DNA of 64,000 bases. It comes from a virus. Its lineage: Duplodnaviria > Heunggongvirae > Uroviricota > Caudoviricetes. The stretch lies in the IMG/VR virus record IMGVR_UViG_2897352509_000007. One strand, given 5' to 3'. The position numbers are program-made. Below, one piece after another: positions 18,001 through 21,000 of the stretch; the first letter of the stretch is position 1; every line of letters starts with the position of its first letter.

Positions 18001-21000
18001 CACTCACTAAAAGTCGAATGCATTTACGGCTAATATTTTATGAGTCGGGAAATAATGCAGACGGCTGTGTTTAATTAGATCTAGTGTGATTACAATCGGT
18101 GGTGCCGACACAGTACTTGTGGCTGTCTCAGCACGGAACTGTTTTGAAAAACAGAACCTTGATTAGGGCTGTGTCCACATTACGTAGGTAGGATCACCCC
18201 ACAGGCACCACATGTCATGCATGGATTAGGATTGAATGATAAATCGTAAAGAAAACTGCAACACCTCGCGTGTAGCACCTGGTTAGCGAACTTTCGAAAG
18301 TACGAGTATTGTATGATTTCCAGCAGTTATCAATTTTACGTATTAATCAGTGAATCAACAACTCGTCAGCAGACTCTCTTTGCTGTTGAATTTTTTGGAA
18401 CGTGTATAGGGCAGAAATTTTTGTTTTGGGACATGGTTGGGACGCCGTAGTACATACGAACTCTGCCGAATAACGTATGATATTATTTTTTAATCTCTTG
18501 GAATACATTATAGAAACAGAATGCTCTTGGGCGATTTTTAGTGATTGTTTAAATAGCCCTGTCATGCAGTTAAAGTGGCGGGCATCCTCTTCAAGGATGG
18601 TGATCCTCAACCGCACCCATTTAGGATGCGACTATTGTGGTAGAACAATGTAAACCATAATTAATCTGCGTGCGGATACATGCTTCATAGATAGGATATT
18701 CTGGTTTGGGTTGTGAATGTGTTGGTCATCGAGTGGACAATAAGGTAAGAGGAGTAACTCCTGCAAAACAAAAAAAGAGTTCAACAAAATCAATCAGTTA
18801 AAAACACGAGAGATCTGTATAAAAAAGCATCGTAAATTCTGTATTTTTCCTTTAAATATAATATGTTATTGAGTTTTGTAAAATCTACCAGTGTGGTACA
18901 TGGATATCGATACCACGGCTAAGTATAAATCTGGTGTTACTACCGTGAAAGACTCGGTACGACTGGATCCGTGGGTGTTTATGTTCTCCGCAGGATATCG
19001 TTTTTAATTTTCTCTGCAAAACCTCTGCAAAACCCCTCTGCAAAACTGGTCATCAAATGACCAGTTTTTTCCATTCCTTACCGCGTGCGTCGTTGTAAAT
19101 ATCGATCATTTTTTGATTCGAATGGCCTAGCAAAATTTTGGTATCAACCCCCTGCTCTCTGAACAATCGCTCTGATAAAGATCTCTGCTCATGGAAAGAG
19201 GGTGGGGTGCCATTAGCACGCCAGTTGTAATCCACAGAATCCCGGGCTTTTTTAAATGCAACGGTTAATGTTGCTGGCTTAACCATCCCGCCGCGCTTAG
19301 CTGTCCCTTTCGCGTGATGGTGGTGCAATAGCCACGGACTAAGAACGCAATCGCGGCAGGATGACACCACATCATCCAGGGTGAGATTTAATTTATCGCA
19401 ACGCAGAGCCAGAGGGATGGCAATCCGGGTTCCTGTTTTTTGCTGTTCGACATGAAGATAACCATCCCGGATATCCGAAAATTGCATTTTGCAAATATCT
19501 GAAAGGCGCTGGCCTGTCATCAGTGCCAGCAGCATACCGCGCTGTAAAAAGTAACCATCCTTTTCCGCTGCGTTATAAATCATCATCCACTCATCAAAAG
19601 TCAGTCGCTGTCTTGATATCCGCACCTGCGGTTTTTTTGCAGATTCTGCAGGGTTAAAGCCTGGCGGGACATCGCCCGTTTGCTGAGCTTCCCGGAAAAC
19701 ATCGATCAGTACTTTCCTGAAAATTTGTCCCATTCTGTTATGTCCTCTGGCCTTGTACTCTTCCAGTACTGATACCACATCTTTTACGGTTATGGCATCT
19801 AACGGTCTGGTGCCAAAACGTTCATCAAATACCCTGAGAGGGGCCGCTTTCTGTTTCAGCGTGTTGAGTTTGATCTCGCCGTTTTCATATCTTTCCTGTT
19901 GAATTTTTCTGTAATTATTCAGAAAAATGGTAACGGTTGATGAACCGCCGGTATCACTAATAATTTTCTCCTGCAGACTGAGCATTTGTTCCATTTGCTG
20001 CCGGGCAAGACGGCTGTTCGCTTCTGCTGCAATAGTTTCTGCCAGTTTCTGGTCAATACTGCCGAGACCGTGATTTTTGCCTGTTATGGGATGCCTGTAA
20101 CGCCAGTAAACTTTGTTATTTCTTTTGTCAAAATACGGAGATAATCCCGGAACATCGGTTTTATATTTTCGCGGGCGCGCCATCTTCCAGTATCCTCTTC
20201 AAAGCAGGGTGATCTGTGGCGATCACCTCCGGCTTGTTTACCATTCCGACAAAGCGAGCTTGCGGATCCACTCGCCAGCGTCTTCCAACTTTTTTGGGGA
20301 GAGGAAATATCATTCCGGCTTTAGCGTATTTACTTAACGTACTCGGAGTAGGGACCGGTTCACTGAATTCCTCTTTTGCCCACTCAGTGAGCAGAATAAG
20401 TCTTGCCATGAGCGTCGTTCGCTAATCATGGTCGCCGCCACTATAGCTGGTGGGCAACGACCGGGGTTGAACATTAAAAATCAGCCTGATTCGGGATCAG
20501 TTTTTGCCAGATAGCTGAAACGTATTTTGCCTGGTAACGAGCGTCATCCAGCGCATTGTGGCGCTCACCTTCGAATGGAATAGCCGTTCTGGCATCGAAG
20601 TCTATGGCTTTCCCCAGCTCAACGATTGTGCGTACATCGCGATCGTTGTAGTAACGCCACGGGCAGGGGATCCCTGCCGTTCGTATGAACGGCGCAAAAT
20701 CGTGTTGTCGAAGTTGGCTCCATTTCCCCAGACCTGAACAAAAAATTCACCGGAGTTTTCGTCGATAAATTCCCGCAATTGTAACAGTGCATCATCTAAC
20801 GGGATTTCATCGGTCATAATGGCAGATTGCGCTTCGCGTGATTGCTTAAGCCACCATTTAATGGTGTCCCGATCAATGACTCCGCCAGCAGTTTCCAGAT
20901 CGATAGTCTTACTAAATTCCGGTCCCATATCTCCGGTTTGCGGATCGAAAAATATTGCACCTATTGAGATAATCGGGGCATCAGGATTTTTTCCCATGGT

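Follow-up and report, generated by a model that had tools for sequence, protein, structure and literature searches.

The analyzed window is a 64,000-nt stretch of a Caudoviricetes record (IMG/VR IMGVR_UViG_2897352509_000007), and positions 20474-22917 of it are occupied, on the minus strand, by an interrupted prophage gene that comprises 814 codons when intact. The upstream part is an ORF of 771 codons, which starts with ATG and runs from 22917 to 20602, with the TAG stop at 20604-20602. In the –1 frame, an open stretch of 90 codons begins at 20746 and closes with the TAA at 20476-20474, the overlap of the two frames being 143 nt. The native frame is left after Gly749: the end of the 771-codon ORF is an out-of-frame tail of 22 junk codons and the TAG (20602-20670), and the original continuation from I750, IPCPW...NQADF, sits in the –1 frame (20474-20671, 65 codons and TAA). 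The ends of the ORF and of the adjacent frame coincide with those given in a first-pass annotation of this DNA, as do exonuclease motifs I and II, DLETMG and NFDNTIL, and HNALDDA in the adjacent frame.

The neighbors of the gene are the same in genomes carrying the intact allele, in the order dicB, a DUF1482 gene, the exonuclease gene, xis, int, and an ompW fragment. The gene belongs to the early-left operon of a lambdoid prophage that sits in ompW, and adjoins xis and int. In the RefSeq annotation of Escherichia coli O157:H7 str. EC4115, the entire interval 20474-22917 is a single CDS (ECH74115_RS09440, “3'-5' exoribonuclease domain-containing protein”), already flagged as a frameshifted pseudogene, while the same gene is intact in strains TW14359 and RM6067W. 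Hence the frameshift as such is ordinary and previously annotated, and involves no new mechanism. The first-pass annotation had noted neither this flag nor the restriction of the deletion to a single assembly, in which a twin copy contradicts it.

The C-terminal part of the protein encodes an exonuclease domain divided between the two frames. The first two thirds of a DEDDh domain (Rv2179c-like, PF16473) lie in frame 0 at 20671-21021 (aa 633-749, profile positions 2-123 of 177), with exonuclease motif I, DLETMG, at 20992-21009 (aa 637-642, D637 and E639) and motif II, NFDNTIL, at 20695-20715 (aa 735-741, D737). The last third of the domain, matching profile positions 124-177, is encoded by the –1 frame continuation and contains motif III, HNALDDA, at 20540-20560, with H787 at 20560-20558 and D792 at 20545-20543 in the numbering of the intact protein. 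Motif III (H-x4-D) is outside the 771-aa polypeptide, in the –1 frame past the stop, and joins the same chain only after a G is restored.

The score of the PF16473 profile (gathering cutoff 27 bits) is 226.7 bits for the repaired 814-aa protein (aa 633-804, positions 2-177 of 177, E = 2e-67), 142.9 bits for the ORF in the window (positions 2-123 of 177), and 71.6 bits for the 65-aa downstream frame taken alone (positions 124-177 of 177, E = 8.9e-20). As the upstream ORF, the downstream frame and the repaired protein match complementary parts of one profile, the two-frame arrangement is not due to chance, and the locus is best read as one gene that has been split, not as two genes. D637, E639, D737, H787, and D792 are invariant in 20 homologs with 57-80% identity, and so is D761 within the NDRDVRT segment. 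Together with the predicted DEDDh-like fold, the invariance of the five catalytic residues bears out the earlier suggestion that the frame switch parts motif III from motifs I and II. Several short entries are seen among the homologs; short or truncated members of this exonuclease family are common in databases.

The AlphaFold2 model of the repaired domain (pLDDT 81.6, pTM 0.79) has a predicted DnaQ-like (RNase H-like) fold. Its best Foldseek matches in the PDB are DexA, RNase T, REXO2/Orn, and DnaQ, with E-values from 1e-11 to 1e-7, and the PADLOC DEDDh model matches aa 634-798 (E = 1.7e-5). The closest fold is that of phage T4 DexA (PDB 8KEL/8KEN; E = 2.7e-11, TM-score 0.71), which shares the DEDDh pentad and, as 8KEL, is the sole relative in the PDB detected at the sequence level (phmmer with the repaired protein, E = 7.5e-8). 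The identity to DexA is about 22%, and, in contrast to DexA, the domain studied here is fused to a RecE-type N-terminal region of roughly 620 aa. PF16473-type domains are common to DexA, the product of the window gene, and EcD, an E. coli DexA homolog from the “HREX” exonucleases, which is reported to digest 5hmC-modified T4 DNA and to protect E. coli (PMC12153337, 2025). In the alignment with DexA, the Asp equivalent to DexA D90 is apparently retained in the window gene and is replaced by Ala in EcD. Once repaired, the domain also covers the “Rv2179c-like” PF16473 profile over its full length, linking it to Rv2179c, RNase T, and oligoribonuclease; the members of this group of DnaQ-like DEDDh 3'-5' exonucleases are 14-22% identical to it in sequence, and the difference from them is that the domain is prophage-borne and fused.

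The remainder of the protein resembles RecE. The region of aa 1-617 (21067-22917, minus strand) corresponds to the non-catalytic N-terminal region of RecE and contains PF06630 (Exonuc_VIII) at aa 56-189 (E = 3.6e-34, profile positions 47-203 of 203). Residues 58-617 are 75% identical over 560 aa to residues 50-592 of K-12 RecE (BLASTP), and homology stops at RecE residue 592. A zinc-ribbon-like CxxC-x8-CxxC motif at aa 542-556 (21250-21294, minus strand) is also present in RecE. Like the recE gene of the Rac prophage, the gene sits in a lambdoid early-left operon near xis and int.

The similarity does not extend to the catalytic module. In K-12 RecE, PF12684 is found at aa 615-850, the PD-(D/E)XK nuclease domain spanning approximately aa 606-866, whereas a Pfam search yields no match to PF12684 (PD-(D/E)XK, DUF3799) in either the intact protein or the one encoded by the window. 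Conversely, RecE of the Rac prophage has no DEDD motifs. In the window gene, the place of the PD-(D/E)XK domain is taken by an unrelated 3'-5' DEDDh domain, and the polarity predicted for this domain is 3'-5', as opposed to 5'-3' for RecE. The NCBIfam equivalog model of RecE, NF007259, scores 1093.2 bits with a cutoff of 1269, and only positions 1-603 of its 877 are matched. Moreover, in Rac recT follows recE, whereas here xis follows directly; no recT partner was found next to the exonuclease gene, the genes downstream being those of excisionase and then integrase. Membership in the RecE family was therefore rejected: the protein lacks the catalytic domain and stays below the equivalog cutoff, and recT is not its neighbor. 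Of the initial description as a RecE-like exonuclease, the N-terminal likeness stands, and the implied RecE-type nuclease is replaced by a DEDDh one. Judging from domain content, the intact gene encodes an 814-aa protein in which an N-terminal region of RecE type is joined to a predicted 3'-5' exonuclease domain at the C-terminus, a DEDDh domain like those of Rv2179c and T4 DexA. The protein is thus related to RecE by a domain swap, its catalytic module being a different one, of the 3'-5' type.

The frame is broken by loss of a single base. The region 20300-21100 of the window is 100% identical to EC4115 (NC_011353.1) and 99.9% identical to many other O157 genomes, the latter having one extra base. 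The site is a GGG run at 20672-20674 on the minus strand (position 3 of codon Q748 and positions 1-2 of codon G749), which is GGGG in all intact alleles; it falls within the G-run at about 20665-20675 near which the shift had initially been placed. In the alignment with TW14359 and RM6067W, GGG versus GGGG is the sole difference in 312 nt. The site is the center of a GC-rich perfect 18-nt palindrome, GGCAGGGGATCCCCTGCC, of the intact alleles, containing GATC/GGATCC, whose remnant occupies 20662-20678; within this former palindrome the deletion sets GGG opposite CCCC.

TW14359 and RM6067W come, like EC4115, from the 2006 spinach outbreak, and their intact gene is 2445 nt long, encoding an 814-aa protein (WP_000102168.1). 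The DNA of the window is identical to the intact alleles save for the missing G and, compared to WP_000102168.1, codon 267 (22117-22119, minus strand), which is AGT (Ser) in the window and GGT (Gly) in TW14359 and RM6067W; this codon is the only further difference from TW14359 within positions 1-31292 of the window. Both intact alleles, WP_000102168.1 and WP_000102170.1, encode 814 aa, whereas in the window the ORF terminates at codon 771, its last 22 residues being junk. Ser267 is also present in an intact second copy of the gene in EC4115 and in a few other isolates. As it occurs in both EC4115 copies and in these isolates, Ser267 is a real variant and not a bleed-through from a paralog.

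A 61-nt probe across the site has 6530 places in 3950 complete E. coli records, and the GGG allele is present in one record, EC4115 alone, all the rest having the extra G. When 153 billion indexed gene positions were searched, one contig (CP001164.1) was found to encode the exact 771-aa product, and at least 999 contigs the intact 814-aa protein; a 771-aa form with Gly267 is absent. No matches to the GGG allele were obtained in metagenome contigs. Among viral contigs, at least 120 have GGGG and one, L015 (IMG/VR), has GGG. L015 is a divergent prophage copy that has decayed heavily; it shares the GGG allele, and the same exonuclease gene in it has lost another G at a second GGGGATCC, yielding GGGATCC. 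Thus, the C-termini of homologs, proposed at the outset as the decisive comparison, follow the frame with HNALDDA: none ends in the out-of-frame tail, except for the EC4115 record itself and this one decayed copy. Misassembly derived from a paralog was considered as the source of the deletion and rejected, as GGG is found in no other copy of any complete genome.

The product of the GGG allele would keep its N-terminal part of RecE type, along with the first two thirds of the DEDDh fold, including the ligands D637/E639 and D737, and would be devoid of the NDRDVRT segment, of H787, the putative general base of motif III, and of D792, the putative last metal ligand. Lacking these two residues, the product should be catalytically dead, judging from the mechanism of DEDDh enzymes, and it is probably misfolded.

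Could both frames nevertheless be used? Programmed recoding, either –1 ribosomal frameshifting or transcriptional slippage, would yield the full-length exonuclease, with the 771-aa protein as a regulated short form. Consistent with this, the 3' frame is the –1 frame with the 143-nt overlap, and the overlap contains two in-register heptamers of the X XXY YYZ type, G GGA AAT at 20728 and G GGA AAG at 20614. However, both heptamers are in register solely through the deletion, and slips at them fail to restore the conserved residues: a slip at 20728 turns motif II to junk, and one at 20614 does the same to W754, N758, D761, R763, and T764. The shift point itself, CAG GGA TCC, has no slippery heptamer, three G residues are far too few for slippage during transcription, and all other alleles except that of L015 are single-frame with GGGG, the gene being in frame in 3949 of the 3950 E. 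coli records and in at least 120 viral contigs. Programmed –1 frameshifting was rejected after a scan of the overlap, and we give recoding in either form hardly any credence.

Equally improbable is a split exonuclease formed by two functional genes, that is, by the 771-aa protein and a separately translated C-terminal peptide. Beyond the mere presence of two open frames, nothing speaks for it; the 3' frame, open over 90 codons, contains no ATG, GTG, or TTG, so independent translation of the 3' fragment was rejected, no relative is split at this point, and the interruption would cut the folded domain itself, at a point that the AlphaFold model places between strand and helix elements. Thus, the absence of a slippery site at the shift and of a start codon in the 3' frame leads to rejection of both the programmed and the two-gene readings.

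Genuine programmed frameshift genes are also present in the window, IS1 insAB' and the tail chaperone G/GT. In these, too, two overlapping frames are read as one product, but their shifts are retained in all copies and occur at known slippery sites (RefSeq “programmed frameshift” note), unlike the exonuclease shift, which has no slippery site and is private to one assembly. The lesion is unprogrammed, and it is private to the deposited EC4115 assembly.

The most telling comparison comes from within the same assembly. At about 2.918-2.935 Mb of the EC4115 record, the prophage arm is present a second time, with the exonuclease gene intact (WP_000102170.1, Ser267), and the two copies are identical across 18,058 bp (window positions 18885-36942) except for the missing G. 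The gene has seven places in EC4115 and six in each of TW14359 and RM6067W, and, as EC4115 thus has one copy more than these isolates, the duplication is recent or possibly an assembly construct. It is in a perfect 18-kb repeat such as this that consensus building is weakest. In the second copy of the prophage, a 46-nt stretch of the portal gene contains three indels of 1 nt each that are found only in EC4115 among 518 records; these are likely further assembly errors. Relative to strain SS52, EC4115 was reported to have 26 homopolymer differences, compared to seven in TW14359 (PMC5552260).

The gene structure, the deletion site, the family assignment, and the privateness of the deletion are demonstrated by the analysis. 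As to the origin of the deletion, we lean, without great firmness, towards a base-calling or consensus error, the real gene being probably intact. The error would have occurred at a homopolymer in a GC-rich palindrome, inside a long repeat that reads could not span. Against an artifact, EC4115 is a finished genome, and prophage genes do decay. A real, very recent loss-of-function frameshift in one of the two duplicated EC4115 copies, an instance of ordinary prophage decay, is possible, if in our view not probable, and its effect would be buffered by the intact twin and by paralogs in other prophages. GGG stands in a finished, deposited genome, homopolymer slippage is a frequent type of mutation, fragmentary members of the family are widespread, and Ser267, the other variant of EC4115 in this gene, is genuine. 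The recurrence of GGG in the divergent decayed prophage L015 points the same way, suggesting that changes or miscalls at this site can recur. Moreover, two repeat-borne patches of the window differ from the deposited EC4115 record, so that the two are not byte-identical. In this context neither patch sequence occurs among the complete E. coli genomes searched, and comparison showed that the patches do not derive from the second EC4115 copy. The window might therefore come from an independent assembly, in which case the deletion would have been seen twice, favoring a real mutation.

On the other hand, with a twin otherwise identical over 18 kb, and the extra copy missing from isolates of the same outbreak, there was little time for a genuine mutation to occur. 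Neither the remaining 3949 complete E. coli records nor the index of 153 billion positions holds a further case. Four G residues make a short run for a hot spot, and the other indel clusters private to EC4115 resemble errors.

A more speculative possibility is that GGGGATCC at the palindrome center is a real, recurrent contraction hot spot. If the changes were biological and reversible, the run would switch on and off a DexA/EcD-like prophage exonuclease that may have a role against phages; we consider this very unlikely. The predicted folding energy is –9.3 kcal/mol at the exonuclease site and –2.6 kcal/mol (z –0.3) at the second site of L015. Hairpin compression was accordingly rejected as a common cause of the GGGGATCC to GGGATCC losses, the hairpin not being a shared factor, as the second site folds weakly.

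If an error is the origin, which seems to us the more likely case, the deposited reference carries a one-base mistake that creates a false pseudogene. As a matter of annotation hygiene, EC4115 is unfit as a reference for inferring loss of this exonuclease gene. More generally, strain-private homopolymer frameshifts within long intragenomic repeats merit checks at the level of reads. The biological importance is small: the most that has happened is the inactivation, in one outbreak isolate, of a single copy of a prophage exonuclease that exists in several redundant copies, and, should GGG be real, the intact twin copy and the paralogs in other prophages would buffer the phenotype. More interesting than the frameshift is the protein itself: the widespread “exonuclease VIII” of O157 prophages is not a RecE-type nuclease, but a RecE N-terminus joined to a predicted 3'-5' exonuclease of the DexA/Rv2179c type.

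The early region of the ompW prophage, from int, xis and exo to the Q antiterminator side, is present twice within the EC4115 record (NC_011353.1 = CP001164.1), as a perfect repeat of 18,058 bp matching positions 18885-36942 of the window to about 2,917,900-2,935,250 of NC_011353.1 (stretch L014). The sole mismatch between the two copies is the G of the exonuclease gene, missing in the window and present in the second copy. In the latter, the ompW prophage sequence runs into the late region of another prophage, the one adjoining yehQRS-btsSR. The EC4115 genome is about 44 kb larger than those of TW14359 and RM6067W, both of which have one copy fewer.

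In intact alleles a perfect 18-nt palindrome, GGCAGGGGATCCCCTGCC, corresponding to window 20662-20678, is centred on the shift site; it includes a BamHI site and a GATC site for Dam and, as single-stranded DNA, folds at -9.3 kcal/mol (z of about -2.5). A different prophage with other int and xis genes, L015 (IMGVR_UViG_2859821903_000003), also has the exonuclease gene, in decayed form. There the gene shows two separate losses of a single G, at 11165 and 11935, each changing GGGGATCC to GGGATCC, and one of the two is at the exact site of the deletion in the window. This repeated loss in one context suggests a mutational hot spot or else a sequencing error specific to that context.

Compared to TW14359, the first 31,292 nt of the window (1-31292) contain just two differences, both within the exonuclease gene: the deletion and codon 267 (window 22117-22119, minus strand), which is AGT, encoding Ser, in place of the Gly of TW14359 and RM6067W. 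EC4115 is the only complete RefSeq genome with Ser267, which is present in both of its copies; together with an intact gene, Ser267 is also observed in the draft genome GCA_012769955.1 and in three further protein accessions.

In the prophage with the second copy, the portal gene (L014 about 22704-22774; NC_011353.1 2,908,690-2,908,790) is annotated as frameshifted. Three single-base indels fall within 46 nt, a pattern seen solely in EC4115 among 518 E. coli records, and the affected stretch, homologous to window positions of about 45228-45274, looks like a low-quality part of the EC4115 assembly.

The window itself is not identical to the deposited record, from which it differs in two patches (31293-32302 and about 61911-62741), both inside multi-copy repeats. 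The first has 46 substitutions across a hypothetical gene and a DUF968 gene, with the reading frames remaining open. In the second, the window has an IS1 of another isoform, with GGGGG vs. GGGG in the IS1 of the record, and about 25 nt of flank on either side differ as well. In this context the patch sequences are absent from complete E. coli genomes, the best matches being 97.4%, 95.7%, and 93.2%. The second EC4115 copy is not their source.

There are further frameshifts in the window. The DUF1076 (NleG-type effector) gene at 3955-4529 (plus strand) is annotated as frameshifted, and, unlike the exonuclease lesion, this is a genuine lineage-wide pseudogene, since EC4115, TW14359, and RM6067W all carry the frameshift. 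Two others, the tail assembly chaperone pair G/T (49896-50647, plus strand; the T part annotated as "incomplete") and insAB' of IS1 (61988-62685, plus strand; "programmed frameshift" in the record annotation), are classical programmed -1 frameshifts and provide useful contrasts, in the same window, to the non-programmed shift in the exonuclease gene.

Truncated ompW fragments border the ompW prophage on both sides. The two prophages are separated by a cluster of genes for type III effectors (4869-17753), comprising nleA, nleH1-2, nleF, nleG, espM1, and an NleG-family gene, with IS66/ISEc8, IS256, IS630, and IS3 remnants, as well as a broken integrase gene, scattered among them.

The affected gene (20474-22917, minus strand; compared with L011 4787-7387) encodes the "exonuclease VIII" widespread in O157 prophages, which is a domain swap: the N-terminus of RecE (75% identical) is fused to a DEDDh domain of the DexA/Rv2179c type, replacing the PD-(D/E)XK nuclease of RecE, and, in a further difference from RecE, recT is lacking. 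The DEDDh domain also occurs in E. coli as stand-alone proteins of 183-190 aa (P0084, P0091, and P0102), and anti-T4 defence has recently been reported for EcD, an E. coli homologue of DexA (PMC12153337).
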